Positions 804 to 6,536 of a DNA stretch of 23,490 bases are shown here, in pieces. The stretch's first letter is position 1; every line of letters starts with the position of its first letter. Both the position numbers and the translations under genes were made by a program. The stretch comes from a virus. Its lineage: Duplodnaviria > Heunggongvirae > Uroviricota > Caudoviricetes. Under the pieces are notes generated by a model. It had not been told where the DNA came from, made no database searches, and saw nothing but the letters and a program-made list of their open reading frames with translations. The DNA lies in the IMG/VR virus record IMGVR_UViG_2563366807_000007, positions 1 through 23,490 of that record; one strand, 5' to 3'.

Positions 804-1553
804 TCACTGATCTCCTTCGGTCAACGGAGATTGTATTTTCCGCATTGATTCTCCTTTAAGTTCGATCTTGATACTGCCATGAACCAGTCGATCTAGGATG
901 GCATCCGCATGTGTGGAGTCTCCGATCATTTTGTACCAGTTTTCCACCGGCAACTGGCTCACTACGATGATTGAGCCTCGTTGGTACATCAGATCCACTA
1001 TTTCCAGCAGGTCGCTACGCTGTTCTGATGAGAGAGGTTCCAGCCCCCAGTCATCCAGAAGCAGCAGATCGCTATTATTCAGCCTGGTCAAAAGTTTGCT
1101 GTATCTTCCATCAGCATGCCCCTGATAGCACTGTTCCATCAGCGCTTTAAGGCGATAATAGTAGACCTTGTATCCCTGTCGGCAGGCATTATGACCAAGT
1201 GCACATGCCAGGAACGTTTTACCGCTGCCGGTGGCCCCGGTCAGTAAAATATTTTGTTTCAGGGTTAACCAGTTTCCCTGACTGAGTGAACGGATGAGGG
1301 CCCTGTCCAGCCCTCTATTGTTACGATAATCCAGCTTTGATAACTCAGCATTAAGTCTGAACCGTGCATGTTTGATCAGACGCTCTGCCTTCCTGTTTTC
1401 ACGGCAGGTTAGTTCTTCTGCTGTCAGTAATGACAGGCGTTCTTCGAAGCCCAGCTCCTGGTATGTGCCCGGTTGAGCAAGTTGCTTTTTAAGCGCATCA
1501 CGGAAGCCGGTGAGTTTAAGTGCGGTCAGTTGTTCGTAAAGATGATTCATCAT
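804..1553 (-). CDS. istB: IS21-family helper ATPase IstB
   Basis: 249 aa. Walker A LLTGATGSGKTF and Walker B LLLLDDWG, with the overall IstB/DnaC-like AAA+ layout. Lies immediately downstream of istA on the same strand. Confidence 0.9.
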   Translation of the reverse strand: MMNHLYEQLTALKLTGFRDALKKQLAQPGTYQELGFEERLSLLTAEELTCRENRKAERLIKHARFRLNAELSKLDYRNNRGLDRALIRSLSQGNWLTLKQNILLTGATGSGKTFLACALGHNACRQGYKVYYYRLKALMEQCYQGHADGRYSKLLTRLNNSDLLLLDDWGLEPLSSEQRSDLLEIVDLMYQRGSIIVVSQLPVENWYKMIGDSTHADAILDRLVHGSIKIELKGESMRKIQSPLTEGDQ

Positions 1554-1564
1554 TGGATCCCGTA

Positions 1565-3106
1565 TCAGTGGTAATACTCACTGCCGCGTACGTTTTCGTG
1601 TTCCATCGTGGATAACAGATCTGGTTTTGGATCCTGAACAGGTTGTTTATCCAGACCTTTTTCCAGGATCGATTTAATACCTGACAGACGCCATACCTTT
1701 GTTTTCAGAGCTCTTGCACATGCTGCATTAAGTCTGGCTTTACTGTATTTTTTATGAAGGTTCAGGAGTCCAAGGCAGAAGCGATAGCTTTGTTCCGGAT
1801 GTGGACGAGAGTTCAGTATATGAAGCACATAACTATGAGTTTCACTGCCTATGTGCCCCGCCCATTCCAGAAGACGCTCTGGCGTCCAGGTGGCATGCTG
1901 TCGATGAGCTTCAGGCATGTGCTCGTTGCGGGTACTGTAGCCATAAGTACGCTTGCGCGGGTGCACAGCAACCTCCTGCCCCTGATTGAAGAGTCTTACC
2001 AGTTCTCCGGAGATCCATGCTTCCAGTTGCTGGCCTAACAGCGAACATGGAACCGAGTAGTAATGTTTGTCGATTTCCACGTGGTAATCGGCATGAACTC
2101 TGACTTTCTTCACCAGGGTGTAACTGTAACTGGCTTCAGGAAGAGGCTTCAGTGCGGGTTTATCAAGCTGGATGAAGAGTTCTGCACGTGAATAACCCAA
2201 CTTCTGCATTATTTTGTTATTCAGTCTTTCCAGCAACTCCCGAATGCGCTGATTAAGCGATGCAAGGCTGTAGAAGATCTCATGCCTGATTCGGGCCATG
2301 ATCCAGCGTTCAACAACCTGAACGCCAACTTCAGCTTTGGCTTTATCTTTCGGTTTACGTGGCCGCGCAGGCAAAACTGCGACATTATAATGCTCAAGCA
2401 TCTGCTGGTAGGTAGGGTTAACGTCAGGATCATACTTACATGCCCTGGATGTGGCGCTTTTCAGATTGTCCGGAACAACAAGTTCAGGAACGCCACCCAA
2501 CCACTGGAAGCAGCGAACATGACTCATCACCCAGTCTTCAAGCTGCTGAGACCAGGTGGCCTCTGCCCATGTGTAACTTGATGCCCCGAGAACAGCTACG
2601 ATGACCTGAGCAGTTCTTATTTCTCCGGTCTCAGGGTCGGTAACGCCAACGGTAGGTCCACAGTAATCAACGAAAAGTTTTTCGCCAGCTTTATGTACCT
2701 GACGCATTGATGGTGAAGTGGTTTTGAGCCATTCACGGTACATCCGGCAGTAATGGTTATAGCTGTAAAAACCGCCTGGATTACGCTCACAGTATTCTTC
2801 CCAGAGTAGCTGCAGCGTCACGCATTTATTACGCAGTTCCCGGTGTACTGTAGCCCAGTCAGGCAGAGAGTGCTTCTTCATCTTAACCTGGGTCTGAAGG
2901 AACGCATGTTTTAGTTTTGTATCATCCCATCCTGTAGGTAAGGGCCACTGCTTTATGCCAAGTTGAGCCGCCCGATTAGCATATCTGGATACAACGGAAG
3001 GGGAGATTGCAAGACTACGACCAATTTGTCGATGGCTGAGTCCAACACCGTATTTAAGCCTAAGAATTTCTTTAAGTTTTCTCATAGAAATTGGAACTGT
3101 TGGCAT
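1565..3106 (-). CDS. istA: IS21-family transposase IstA
   Basis: 513 aa. N-terminal helix-turn-helix (LSHRQIGRSLAISPSVVSRYANRA) followed by a large integrase/DDE-type catalytic region. Gene order istA then istB is typical of the IS21 family. Confidence 0.9.
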   Translation of the reverse strand: MPTVPISMRKLKEILRLKYGVGLSHRQIGRSLAISPSVVSRYANRAAQLGIKQWPLPTGWDDTKLKHAFLQTQVKMKKHSLPDWATVHRELRNKCVTLQLLWEEYCERNPGGFYSYNHYCRMYREWLKTTSPSMRQVHKAGEKLFVDYCGPTVGVTDPETGEIRTAQVIVAVLGASSYTWAEATWSQQLEDWVMSHVRCFQWLGGVPELVVPDNLKSATSRACKYDPDVNPTYQQMLEHYNVAVLPARPRKPKDKAKAEVGVQVVERWIMARIRHEIFYSLASLNQRIRELLERLNNKIMQKLGYSRAELFIQLDKPALKPLPEASYSYTLVKKVRVHADYHVEIDKHYYSVPCSLLGQQLEAWISGELVRLFNQGQEVAVHPRKRTYGYSTRNEHMPEAHRQHATWTPERLLEWAGHIGSETHSYVLHILNSRPHPEQSYRFCLGLLNLHKKYSKARLNAACARALKTKVWRLSGIKSILEKGLDKQPVQDPKPDLLSTMEHENVRGSEYYH

Positions 3107-3647: not shown

Positions 3648-4181
3648 ATGAACACCAAAATCAAATACGGCCTGTCGGCTGCCGTTCTGGCGCTGATTGC
3701 CGCTGGTGCGCCTGCGCCTGACATTCTCGACCAGTTTCTGGATGAAAAGGAAGGCAACCACACCACGGCATACCGTGATGGTGCAGGTATCTGGACCATC
3801 TGCCGTGGTGCCATCATGGTGGATGGCAAACCTGTCGTTCCGGGCATGAAGTTGTCGAAGGAAAAATGCGACCAGGTTAACGCCATTGAGCGTGATAAAG
3901 CGCTGGCGTGGGTGGAGAAAAACATCAGAGTGCCGCTGACCGAACCCCAGAAAGCGGGGATCGCGTCATTCTGTCCGTACAACATTGGTCCCGGTAAGTG
4001 TTTCCCGTCGACGTTTTACAGACGAATTAATGCTGGTGATCGAAAAGGTGCCTGCGAAGCGATTCGCTGGTGGATTAAGGACGGTGGCAGAGACTGCCGT
4101 ATTCGTTCAAACAACTGTTACGGTCAGGTATCCCGTCGTGACCAGGAGAGCGCGCTGGCGTGCTGGGGTATCGACAGATAA
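3648..4181 (+). CDS. R: SAR endolysin (phage lysozyme, T4/P21 R-type, glycoside hydrolase family 24)
   Basis: 177 aa. N-terminal Gly/Ala-rich weakly hydrophobic signal-anchor-release segment (GLSAAVLALIAAGAPAP). Catalytic spacing E35-8aa-D44-5aa-T50 (EGNHTTAYRDGAGIWT), as in phage 21 R and E. coli prophage RrrD/RrrQ lysozymes. Confidence 0.9.
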   Translation: MNTKIKYGLSAAVLALIAAGAPAPDILDQFLDEKEGNHTTAYRDGAGIWTICRGAIMVDGKPVVPGMKLSKEKCDQVNAIERDKALAWVEKNIRVPLTEPQKAGIASFCPYNIGPGKCFPSTFYRRINAGDRKGACEAIRWWIKDGGRDCRIRSNNCYGQVSRRDQESALACWGIDR

Positions 4182-4337
4182 GCAGAATATTTTGCTGAAA
4201 AATGAGGAATGGCCACGCGGGCGGATAACACGAAATCCTGCGAACTGGCGAAACGTAAGTGAATAAAAGTAAAAACCCCGTTTGTTGGCACCAAGCGAGG
4301 TTTTGTGTTTCTGACCTTGAGTAAGGCAAGGGAGAAC

Positions 4338-4520
4338 ATGGCGAAGTGTAAACGAATTCTGTTGAGGTTGACTATGAAAAATGGCCTTGAACTGAAAGCG
4401 CCTGTAACTGATGACATCAGCAGAGCACTGGCTTTTGCCATTAAGTGGGTGGCGGTCGGTGTTGCTGTGTCCCCGATGCTGTATGGGCTGGCAAAACTGG
4501 TCATTGCGTTGAAATCGTGA
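4338..4520 (+). CDS. Small predicted membrane protein (60 aa), unknown function
   Basis: ATG at 4338 preceded by AGGGAG. Basic N-terminus ([14 protein letters not shown]) and hydrophobic C-terminal helix ([28 protein letters not shown]). Its stop codon overlaps the RBS of the next ORF. Confidence 0.4.
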
Positions 4521-4534
4521 AGGGAGGATTAAGC

Positions 4535-4666
4535 ATGTCAGACAAACTCATAACGCTGGCGAAGATCCTCTGTGTAATTGTCGGCATTTCATTTTCACTA
4601 ATGCTGGTTGCTCTTTTTCTTTCCATGGCCTGGATGATGTTGTCTTCGTCGGGGTTGCTGGGGTGA
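4535..4666 (+). CDS. Small hydrophobic protein (43 aa), unknown function
   Basis: Strong RBS AAGGGAGGA 7 nt upstream of ATG 4535. Sequence [43 protein letters not shown] is almost entirely transmembrane. Its stop TGA (4664-4666) overlaps the possible GTG start of Rz. Confidence 0.4.
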
Positions 4667-5136
4667 ACATAAACCGAATGCTTTCCGCGTTTATCGTTAT
4701 TCTGCTGGTGGCCTGTGGTGCGCTGTGGATGGCAACAGACCATTACCGTGATAACGCGATTACCTACAAAGCGCAGCGCGATAACAAAGCCAGTGAACTG
4801 AAGCTGGCGAACGCAACCATTACTGATATGCAGGTGCGCCAGCGCGATGTTGCTGCGCTCGATGCAAAATACTCGAGGGAATTAGCCGATGCGAGAGCTG
4901 AAAATGAAACTCTTCGCGCTGACGTTGCCGCTGGTCGTAAGCGCCTGCGGATCAACGCCACCTGTCCAGGCTCCGTGCGTGAAGCCCCCACCACCTCCGG
5001 CGTGGATAATGCAACCGGCCCCCAACTGGCAGACACCGTTACACGGGATTATTTCACCCTCAGAGAGCGGCTGATGACGATGCACAAGCAACTGGAAGGG
5101 GCACAGGACTATATCCGCACTCAGTGCCTGAAATAA
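4663..5136 (+). CDS. Rz: Rz i-spanin (inner-membrane spanin subunit)
   Basis: N-terminal TM segment then [44 protein letters not shown] and a C-terminal [18 protein letters not shown] region, matching lambda Rz as I recall it. Start is either GTG 4663 or ATG 4678. Confidence 0.9.
4889..5074 (+). CDS. Rz1: Rz1 o-spanin (outer-membrane lipoprotein), embedded in the +1 frame of Rz
   Basis: Lipoprotein signal with lipobox LVVSAC, followed by the proline-rich stretch [22 protein letters not shown], nearly identical to lambda Rz1. Lies wholly within Rz in a different frame; an alternative start is ATG 4904. Confidence 0.8.
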
Positions 5137-5446
5137 GTTTTGTTGATGCGCCGTATCGTCGCTATATTCCCTCATTAACAGAGACCGCAGCCCGACAGGG
5201 AGACTCCTCTGCGCGAGTGTGCGGGGATAATTAAAAACGATGCACACCGGGTTTTTACCGCGTTAATGATTCGCGGGTTTATCCCGGTGCGATGGTGGAA
5301 GAAACAGGAAGCTGTATTACAGAAAGTGCTACTACTGTATCCCGATGCGATGTATGTAATGTGAGTCAGATAATGGCACAGGATGTGGTGATGTGGCAGT
5401 CTGGAACACAGGATATATTGTCAGAATAAGACCCGTAGGAATAAAA

Positions 5447-5773
5447 ATGAAAAGACGCCTTTTACTACTTTTTCTGTTATCTGTCCTGGCAGTGGGATGC
5501 TCGCAGCAAAAAGCTGATGAGCCCCGGCAATTAGTGACGGTGTATCCACGATATCCGGAATATGCTGCAGCAAATTATATCAAGGGGCTGGTTGAGGTTA
5601 AGTTCGATATTGGTGCTGATGGGACTGTGACACGGATCGTTTTTCTCCGCTCAGAGCCTCATAATTTGTTTCGTGATGAAGTGGTGAAGGCCATGGCGAA
5701 ATGGCGATTTGAAAAGAATCGCCCCTGTCAGGGAGTGAAGAGACAATTTATCTTTACGCCGTCACGTCCTTGA
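5447..5773 (+). CDS. Lipoprotein with a TonB C-terminal-like domain (moron)
   Basis: 108 aa. Signal peptide MKRRLLLLFLLSVLAVGC with lipobox AVGC and Ser at +2. The remainder (YPEYAAANYIKGLVEVKFDIGADGTVTRIVFLRSEPHNLFRDEVVKAMAKWRFEKNRP) aligns motif by motif with the E. coli TonB C-terminal domain ([11 protein letters not shown]..DGRV....[24 protein letters not shown]). Confidence 0.7.
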   Translation: MKRRLLLLFLLSVLAVGCSQQKADEPRQLVTVYPRYPEYAAANYIKGLVEVKFDIGADGTVTRIVFLRSEPHNLFRDEVVKAMAKWRFEKNRPCQGVKRQFIFTPSRP

Positions 5774-5865: not shown

Positions 5866-5888
5866 GGCGTTGTATGCCACACAACGCC
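5866..5888. terminator. Hairpin (8-bp stem GGCGTTGT/ACAACGCC, 7-nt loop) between convergent genes; possible bidirectional terminator
   Basis: Perfect inverted repeat about 90 nt downstream of the lipoprotein gene and 8 nt downstream of the minus-strand gene stop. A T-rich tract follows on the plus strand (TCACTGTTCATTTCTTCTTTTTCTC). Confidence 0.3.
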
Positions 5889-5895
5889 TCACTGT

Positions 5896-6075
5896 TCATT
5901 TCTTCTTTTTCTCTGGTGGAACCCGATGAATAAGAGTTGCACTGGTTTCCGATGAGATGGCGATATACTCGGGCAAAGTATGCTGGCAGTTTTCCAACTG
6001 GTCAAAAATACCTGCTCTCGTCTGTTGCAATGCCTGCAGCATGCGGCGGCAATGCGCCTTGCTTTTACTAACCAT
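5896..6075 (-). CDS. Small hypothetical protein (59 aa) with a C-terminal lysine tail
   Basis: ATG at 6075-6073 (minus strand) preceded by a strong RBS GAGGAAGG. Sequence MVSKSKAHCRRMLQALQQTRAGIFDQLENCQHTLPEYIAISSETSATLIHRVPPEKKKK. The longer track ORF (to 6249) probably over-extends the 5' end. Confidence 0.45.
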   Translation of the reverse strand: MVSKSKAHCRRMLQALQQTRAGIFDQLENCQHTLPEYIAISSETSATLIHRVPPEKKKK

Positions 6076-6136: not shown

Positions 6137-6388
6137 TTATCGGTTTTGGCTACGCAGCATAGTACAAAACGGACAGGTGCATCCCGGGACGGGGGAGGCG
6201 TCACATGTCCCTGTGATGGTTGTTCCGGGTAATGCACTGTGTGGGGCATAAAAATGTCCGATAATTTTACTTTCTACCGCAGTTAGTTGATTCGTTGGTC
6301 CTGGTAGCACATTGGGCGAGGATTTAAATGCCAGGCAACTGAAGGATGATGTTGCAAGGGAGATAGCGAGAATATTTCTGATTTTCAT
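6137..6388 (-). CDS. Small predicted secreted cysteine-rich protein (83 aa)
   Basis: ATG at 6388-6386 (minus strand) with AGAGG about 9 nt upstream. N-terminal signal-peptide-like segment MKIRNILAISLATSSFSCLA. The mature part carries a Cys cluster (TGTCDASPVPGCTCPFC). Lies in an AT-rich moron region. Confidence 0.45.
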   Translation of the reverse strand: MKIRNILAISLATSSFSCLAFKSSPNVLPGPTNQLTAVESKIIGHFYAPHSALPGTTITGTCDASPVPGCTCPFCTMLRSQNR

Positions 6389-6536
6389 TTGATGATGCCT
6401 CTGTGTGAAATGACGGTAAACGACGCACTTGTGCCGGCACATAATAGCAAGCACCATAATAGATCAGATTCGATTCTTGCTGTAAGTGATAATTATTCTC
6501 GTTTTCGGGTCCTTTCCGTCGATCCAACAGGTTACG

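Follow-up and report, generated by a model that had tools for sequence, protein, structure and literature searches.

A lipoprotein consisting of a TonB C-terminal domain in a lambda-like prophage: a candidate decoy for TonB boxes

What would a phage do with the C-terminal domain of TonB, separated from the rest of the host energy transducer and carried on a lipid anchor? This question is raised by a gene located at 5447-5773 (+) of the stretch of DNA analysed here (hereafter the window: positions 1 to 23,490, i.e. all 23,490 nucleotides presented, of the IMG/VR virus record IMGVR_UViG_2563366807_000007, Caudoviricetes), which is a lambda-like prophage's late region. The gene encodes a 108-residue protein with the TonB_C domain and fold and with the features of a bacterial lipoprotein; it is under purifying selection, keeps a conserved position next to the lysis genes and is transcribed in lysogens. 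We infer from this an outer-membrane location, the binding of TonB boxes and an exclusion phenotype. The reading that we prefer, at a probability of about 0.45, is that the product would be a decoy, an outer-membrane-tethered TonB C-terminal domain competing for TonB boxes, a mechanism drawn from the sequence, the structural model and the analogy with known systems.

The open reading frame extends from an ATG at 5447 to a TGA at 5771-5773, stop included. As the initial annotation of this locus had expected, a Pfam search of the product returned TonB_C (PF03544, E=7.3e-13, 49.2 bits compared to a cutoff of 24.6), and TIGR01352 was matched at 47.4 bits (cutoff 27.1). The same annotation held that the mature part of the protein follows the C-terminal domain of TonB motif by motif, and this is borne out by the alignment: residues 24-103 align without gaps to residues 151-230 of E. 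coli TonB (PDB 1u07, E=1.4e-14), with 32/80 identities (40%). TonB P161, Y163, P164, G174, F180, G186, P198, F202, W213 and F230 are kept in the window protein (the equivalents of Y163, P164, F180, G186, F202, W213 and F230 being Y36, P37, F53, G59, F75, W86 and F103), and these landmark residues are mostly invariant or nearly so across the family alignments. What the protein was said to lack is indeed missing: the N-terminal anchor of TonB, which provides the coupling to ExbB/ExbD, is absent and a cleavable lipoprotein signal peptide is found there instead; the proline-rich spacer is absent as well, the whole part preceding the domain being a 17-residue signal peptide, a cysteine and a 7-residue linker. 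Every cutoff for TonB equivalogs failed (NCBIfam PRK10819, best 69.2 bits compared to 315). Judged from sequence and model, the product is a lipoprotein made of TonB's C-terminal domain only, not TonB itself.

Structure prediction led to the same assignment. AlphaFold2 (AF2) run with six near-identical sequences gave a predicted local distance difference test score (pLDDT) of 60, and was replaced by a run with a 31-sequence alignment, whose model (mc376e1dc1b3a) has pLDDT values of 95-98 across the domain. According to this model and to Foldseek, the TonB_C domain comprises residues 26-104 (5522-5758, +) in the order alpha1-beta1-beta2-alpha2-beta3. The comparison with TonB C-terminal domain structures proposed in the initial annotation was positive: the model superimposes on 2grx_C (TonB from the FhuA:TonB complex) with a root mean square deviation (rmsd) of 0.9 Å over 75 columns, and on 2gsk_B (TonB from the BtuB:TonB complex) with 1.1 Å over 79 columns, the TM score being 0.91 in both cases. 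The best 16 fold matches in the PDB are TonB, FusB or TonB2 C-terminal domains (0.9-1.3 Å to E. coli TonB), and TolA domain III comes next in the ranking (PDB ranks 18-25). The viral structure library BFVD gave no match at E<=1e-3, which means either that few catalogued viral proteins have this fold or that the library lacks the family. The beta3 edge strand, which in TonB is the strand that pairs with the TonB box, corresponds to residues 94-103. The protein ends at the position matching TonB residue 235; the last four TonB residues are missing, and beta3 is therefore left uncovered by any C-terminal strand. The only extra cysteine, C94, is not conserved in the homologues.

The N-terminus of the protein has the n-region, h-region and lipobox layout typical of bacterial lipoproteins; it reads MKRRLLLLFLLSVLAVGC up to and including Cys18, followed by SQQKADEPRQ... 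(translation of 5447-5773, +). The lipoprotein signal peptide (residues 1-17) and the lipobox Cys18 (5498-5500) together occupy 5447-5500 (+). The lipobox LAVGC fits a PROSITE-type pattern that is matched by 30 of the 31 aligned homologues (31-98% identity), and the cysteine is invariant in all 31, in agreement with the original description of the gene as one encoding a 108-residue lipoprotein. By the established +2 rule, Asp at position +2 of a lipoprotein causes inner-membrane retention. Residue +2 is Ser in the window protein, and Ser, Ala, Thr or Val (18, 6, 5 and 1 cases, respectively) in the family. Because +2 is Ser and Asp is never seen there, the protein is predicted to be sorted to the outer membrane, acylation and localisation both being predictions. 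The mature protein has 91 residues. Its cysteine is connected to the domain by the tether SQQKADE (residues 19-25; 5501-5521, +), the alignment with TonB beginning at residues 24-26 (TonB residue 150-151); the tether measures 7-13 residues in every family member, 7 in the window protein. The sequence has a Shine-Dalgarno motif AGGA at 5437-5440 (+), separated by 6 nt from the ATG; at the equivalent position the phage 21 record annotates a ribosome binding site.

The gene is widespread and its position is stable. An identical protein (100%) is encoded by phage 21 (CPT_21_73), by the LF82 prophage Perceval (PERCE_65), by ev017 and by ECOR prophages, under database names such as "TonB C-terminal domain protein" (phage 21), "TonB fragment" (Perceval) or 'partial tonB-like membrane protein'; the RefSeq name is "TonB family protein" (WP_000830178.1), and the protein is also annotated in O157 prophages. 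Of 5426 complete E. coli genomes searched, 1225 carry the gene (1203 of them at an identity of at least 99%), and the index of a public assembly collection lists this exact protein in about 51,000 blocks. A second allele, whose protein is 72% identical, is present in 415 of the 5426 genomes and also in Stx1a phages and JLK-2012, and a homologue of 41% identity is found at the corresponding place of a Klebsiella phage. IMG/VR loci whose flanking sequence is long enough show the gene directly after endolysin and Rz/Rz1, on the same strand and before the terminase, and the two alleles are linked to different packaging modules. Within the window it starts 310 bp past the end of Rz (4663-5136; PF03245, phrog_13), in which Rz1 (4889-5074; phrog_3198) is embedded; the neighbours upstream are thus genuine spanin genes, as the initial annotation had read them.

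Between the two alleles the synonymous divergence (dS) is about 1.4, i.e. saturated, the nonsynonymous divergence (dN) is 0.18 and the dN/dS ratio is 0.11-0.13, the same ratio being obtained for the mature part; the length is constant at 108 residues. The gene is under purifying selection, and since the protein is conserved and selected, "fragment" is a misnomer. The differences between the alleles are unevenly distributed: 8/15 in the stretches that correspond to TonB 158-165 and to beta3, compared to 10/64 elsewhere (Fisher p=0.004, a post hoc test), a distribution that would be expected if a binding surface diversifies. The gene and its domain are already in the databases, the gene even being counted among the morons in published work, and the bare observation is thus not new. 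No paper in the literature searched notes the lipoprotein nature of the product, proposes a mechanism or tests a phenotype, nor was a functional study found there; the announcement of the phage 21 genome is silent on it.

Transcription in lysogens is documented in published transcriptomes. In LF82 grown in LB, the Perceval gene LF82_160 ("TonB fragment") is transcribed 8-fold above the prophage median and listed among the morons, cI and sitA being transcribed 11-fold and 13-fold over the prophage median in the same transcriptome (PMC9928086); the LF82_160 protein is identical to that of the window. The RNA-seq data from NC101 set the wild type against a derivative from which the phage 21-like prophage NC-SV had been removed. 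In this comparison GQ584_RS06965 ("TonB family protein") showed a log fold change (logFC) of -9.9, the fifth largest among the prophage genes listed; the published table gives -9.76 for the cI-like regulator, -6.2 for iss, -5.6 for sitA and -7.2 for quuD. RS06965 is flanked by iss/bor, as in phage 21, and its synteny with loci carrying the exact protein indicates that it most probably is the TonB_C gene. The NC-SV lysis and terminase locus tags that were looked up have no row among the NC101 rows listed, which suggests low expression. The gene must be transcribed late, because it is co-oriented with the late operon, and it is a moron, because it is transcribed in lysogens; the proposal of a lipoprotein moron thus agrees with the strong signals of the Perceval and NC-SV genes.

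The decoy reading would work in the following way. The domain would be placed at the outer membrane, where the TonB boxes are, because of the invariant cysteine, the absence of Asp at +2 and the short tether; the 7-residue tether would keep the TonB C-terminal domain, otherwise free, against this membrane on its periplasmic side. Capture of TonB boxes would be possible because the TonB fold and an exposed beta3 are kept: the edge strand would pair by beta-augmentation with the TonB-box strands of transporters that depend on TonB, and the TonB boxes of group B colicins could be captured likewise. Since the domain has no connection with ExbB/ExbD it cannot transduce energy, and it would compete with host TonB as a dominant-negative decoy. 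The outcome would be a partial TonB-minus phenotype, with protection against T1/phi80-type phages, group B colicins and microcins, and the cost would be some loss of siderophore and B12 uptake. In TonB itself, the beta3 edge strand and the TonB-box strand of an outer-membrane transporter form a pair (PMC11658791). According to the statements that PMC9841981 devotes to earlier work, an overproduced periplasmic TonB domain inhibits TonB-dependent import (citing Howard 2001) and a TonB-box peptide lowers colicin killing and phi80 infection (citing Tuckman 1992). The initial annotation had speculated that TonB-box binding might lead to superinfection exclusion or lysogenic conversion; by analogy this is plausible, fitting the fold, the location and the precedent. 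A bolder form of the same idea, which we regard as doubtful, would see in the protein a natural 'anti-TonB' carried by roughly one in four to one in three E. coli strains as well as by phage 21, shielding the cell from every agent that requires TonB (T1/phi80-like phages, group B colicins, microcins, siderophore-antibiotic conjugates), with alleles preferring different TonB boxes and with sitABCD offsetting the iron cost in the phage 21-type prophages.

Several observations weigh against the decoy reading. Three TonB residues, R158, Q160 and R166, are replaced by T31, Y33 and Y39 in the window protein, and the anchor sits at the N-terminus of the domain, on the outer-membrane side, the end which in TonB leads to the inner membrane. 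The lambdoid phages that use FhuA (phi80, N15, HK022) are not among the 15 phage records with the gene. Curing of NC-SV was without significant change in fiu, fhuA and exbB in NC101, so there is no sign of iron starvation at the native expression level in rich medium, a sign that the prophage sitABCD could mask; the authors of the NC101 work credited the protective effect of the prophage to a small RNA, not to the TonB_C gene. The family is also not phage-specific: chromosomal single-domain TonB_C lipoproteins (RefSeq 'TonB family protein') exist in Pantoea, Rahnella, Erwinia and Raoultella. Homologues with 31-40% identity lie among metabolic genes, outside prophages, in Pantoea and in a Salmonella-labelled genome, and there are no evident phage genes near the Raoultella and Erwinia loci; a genome-wide locus scan with a narrow alignment yielded 4 relevant loci only. 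From these stand-alone chromosomal homologues it follows that the family has a host function and need not be anti-phage. Homologues outside prophages and an unshifted Fur regulon in the lysogen weaken the exclusion idea, and the literature searched holds no binding or phenotype data on the protein.

The lack of a global effect on the Fur regulon in the lysogen fits a narrow target better than a global inhibition of TonB, and leads to a different reading in which the lipoprotein binds the periplasmic face or the plug of one outer-membrane protein, such as the receptor used by the carrier phage itself or one TonB-dependent transporter, and blocks it allosterically, as T5 Llp does with FhuA, instead of competing with TonB in general. 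Llp and Cor act in this manner, and the clustering of the allele differences in putative contact segments is what partner-specific co-evolution predicts. However, the protein is not similar to Llp or Cor and its fold is that of TonB_C; the C-terminus of phage 21 J resembles that of long-tailed Stx phages, a resemblance that stops short of a receptor assignment; and the alleles are found in phages with different packaging modules, with no link to tail type shown. We consider the blocking of one receptor unlikely. Less probable again is a role in the envelope, of the kind a host protein might have, in which the domain binds peptidoglycan or a partner (host TonB C-terminal domain, ExbD, a component of Tol-Pal) and would thereby affect the stability of the envelope, signalling or the resistance to serum, the last being what the neighbouring moron Bor/Iss affects. 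The chromosomal homologues outside prophages (Pantoea, Salmonella-labelled genome; Raoultella and Erwinia loci) argue for a housekeeping-type role; the fold shared with the C-terminal domain of TolA and the proximity of the gene to bor/iss in phage 21-type prophages also favour the envelope reading; in addition, Kaserer et al. reportedly observed in 2008 binding of the TonB C-terminus to peptidoglycan. By contrast, a tether of 7-13 residues is too short for a comfortable reach to peptidoglycan or to inner-membrane partners, and the closest solved structures, by sequence and by fold, are TonB domains in the TonB-box-bound form.

The names 'TonB fragment' and 'partial tonB-like membrane protein', the 40% identity with TonB and the missing anchor might suggest a functionless remnant, i.e. 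a 3' piece of tonB captured and passively carried, but this is effectively refuted by the selection on the gene (dN/dS 0.11-0.13 at a saturated dS) and by its transcription in lysogens, and is further opposed by the gain of a conserved signal peptide, the constant 108 residues, the 1203 genomes at 99% identity or above and the same slot in the Klebsiella phage; we regard it as highly improbable. The same holds for an accessory role in lysis, which is what PHROG 1267 ('Rz-like spanin', category 'lysis') and the place of the gene at the end of the lysis cassette would imply. The match to this PHROG is strong (E=5e-43) and the gene always follows Rz/Rz1 directly on the same strand, but a full two-component Rz/Rz1 pair is already present upstream, the protein is neither proline-rich nor about 60 residues long as o-spanins are and has the TonB_C fold, and the gene is detected in NC101 while the lysis-gene tags have no row among the rows listed. 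Nor is the protein a u-spanin, because it has no C-terminal transmembrane segment. The PHROG 1267 label is wrong; the best account of it is that the family was named after its gene neighbours, and phage annotations will inherit the error. The possibility of a known defence-system component was discarded, PADLOC giving no match for the TonB_C lipoprotein.

As the gene is expressed in lysogens, a promoter is needed. Scanning for the sigma-70 consensus found no site on the + strand. A non-coding block downstream of Rz at 5147-5290 (+), more conserved than the genes on either side and, between the alleles, than the TonB_C gene itself, is a candidate for the site of the lysogenic promoter, and it may hold this promoter or some other regulatory element; 5137-5285 matches about 2700 of the 5426 E. 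coli genomes, many of them without the TonB_C gene. A structured RNA or riboswitch in 5147-5290 was rejected (no Rfam match, fold z=-1.2), and so was Fur regulation of the TonB_C gene, the best upstream match being 11/19, at background level. An open reading frame at 5292-5429 (+), orf45 (CPT_21_72 in phage 21, 45 residues, hypothetical), was considered as a partner gene and discarded, since indels break its frame where the 72% allele is present; it probably does not represent a gene. Inside the coding region of the TonB_C gene there is an antisense sigma-70-like site at 5601-5574 (-) (TTAACC-16-TATAAT with an upstream TG, 10/12), which is the best promoter-like match in the 2-kb scan. Downstream, an 8-9 bp G+C-rich hairpin (GGCGTTGT-N7-ACAACGCC) at 5866-5888 is a candidate bidirectional terminator between the gene and the convergent open reading frame at 5896-6075 (-). 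This hairpin appears in the minimum free energy and centroid folds (z=-2.4 for the 3' region); the terminator scan did not call it, as no T-run directly follows it.

The other genes of the window are arranged as follows. The lysis region includes the endolysin gene (3648-4181) and, in the gap between endolysin and Rz, an insert of about 480 bp (4182-4662, +) with open reading frames for membrane proteins at 4305-4520 (phrog_1115) and 4535-4666 (phrog_4906); this insert is found only in a subset of the related loci and occurs with both TonB_C alleles. After the TonB_C gene come two small minus-strand open reading frames, then the Nu1/A terminase from 6732, and then head and tail genes. The convergent gene at 5896-6075 (-) (59 residues, phrog_4843, RefSeq WP_000253883.1) is tightly linked to the window-type allele; RS06970, the syntenic neighbour of RS06965 in NC-SV, had a logFC of -7.5 in the NC101 lysogen. 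The second, at 6137-6388 (-), is unannotated and encodes 83 residues with a signal peptide (MKIRNILAISLATSSFSCLAF...) and belongs to no Pfam or PHROG family. The best Fur-box-like sequence of the window (6482-6506, 15/19, with overlapping 14/19 matches) lies about 100 nt upstream of it, and this open reading frame may be an iron-regulated secreted moron adjoining the TonB_C gene. The gene bor is absent from the window, and the TonB_C gene is the only lipoprotein moron of that pair present. An IS21-family element, istA/istB, lies at 804-3106 (-) (IstA, 512 residues, rve and Mu-transposase C; IstB, ATPase, 248 residues), in a stretch of low GC content that separates a DUF1327/YdfR-type gene (132-746, +) from the endolysin gene, within the late/lysis operon. 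This insertion probably disrupts or polarises late transcription in the window prophage. IstB also matches 'DrmD' of PADLOC, presumably through the common ATPase fold.

Two further gene groups accompany the TonB_C gene in many carriers. The phage 21-type carriers (phage 21 OL657228, at 21967-25416; Perceval; NC-SV) also bear the iron/manganese importer sitABCD, a TonB-independent route for iron that could offset a TonB-inhibiting moron. This association is not obligatory, because the prophage of E. coli 7/2, which is nearly identical to that of the window and its closest relative, has no sit genes. Many carriers (among them the loci L100, L102 and L106, the last at 354-1436, -) have a prophage gene for a porin of the OmpC/NmpC type between Q and the holin gene; it is also expressed in the LF82 and NC101 lysogens, which makes it a second outer-membrane-remodelling moron in the neighbourhood of the late region.

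If the decoy reading is true, the gene would give prophages a novel means of excluding competitors, by mimicking the energy transducer of the host and thereby disarming a whole class of receptors, whereas the known exclusion lipoproteins jam one receptor each. It would then also be relevant to how clinical E. coli vary in sensitivity to colicins, microcins, T1-like therapeutic phages and Trojan-horse siderophore antibiotics of the cefiderocol type. The gene is very common (1225 + 415 of the 5426 genomes) and expressed in lysogens of the pathogenic strains LF82 and NC101. The protein is a natural minimal candidate for a TonB-box binder in structural work, and, given its chromosomal relatives, one may ask whether tethered TonB domains also serve bacteria themselves in tuning outer-membrane transport.

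A tethered mimic of TonB would join two known kinds of inhibitor, the exclusion lipoproteins directed at TonB-dependent transporters and the dominant-negative TonB fragments. With the C-terminal domain of E. coli TonB (about 150-239; 1u07, 2grx, 2gsk) the window protein shares the Pfam family, the fold (rmsd 0.9-1.2 Å), the YP motif, the aromatic residues and beta3; unlike TonB, it is lipid-anchored at its N-terminus and has no transmembrane anchor, spacer or ExbB/ExbD coupling. The engineered periplasmic TonB fragments (Howard, Herrmann, Stratilo, Braun 2001) are likewise C-terminal domains freed from the energy-transducing anchor and placed in the periplasm, and reportedly inhibit FhuA/FecA transport (PMC9841981 describes an inhibition of TonB-dependent import); they are soluble, overproduced laboratory constructs, whereas the window protein is natural, expressed from a prophage, 40% identical to TonB and predicted to be tethered to the outer membrane. 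Llp (T5) and Cor (T1, phi80, N15, HK022) are small phage lipoproteins too, oriented from the outer membrane into the periplasm, and they target a TonB-dependent transporter from its periplasmic side, but they have a small disulphide-bonded fold, bind a non-native conformation of the FhuA plug and not the TonB box, and are encoded next to the gene for the receptor-binding protein, in contrast to the position of the TonB_C gene after the lysis cassette; no similarity to Cor or Llp was detected in the window protein, whose Pfam, PHROG and PDB matches are to TonB_C only. Bor/Iss (lambda, phage 21) is likewise a small outer-membrane lipoprotein moron located between Rz and cos/terminase and expressed in lysogens; it differs from the TonB_C lipoprotein in its family (PF06291), in being encoded on the opposite strand and in having a known phenotype, serum resistance. 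The chromosomal TonB_C lipoproteins of Enterobacterales (104-130 residues, 31-46% identity) have the same design of lipobox cysteine, tether of 7-13 residues and one domain; those examined are encoded among metabolic genes, whereas the window gene belongs to a prophage lysis cassette.

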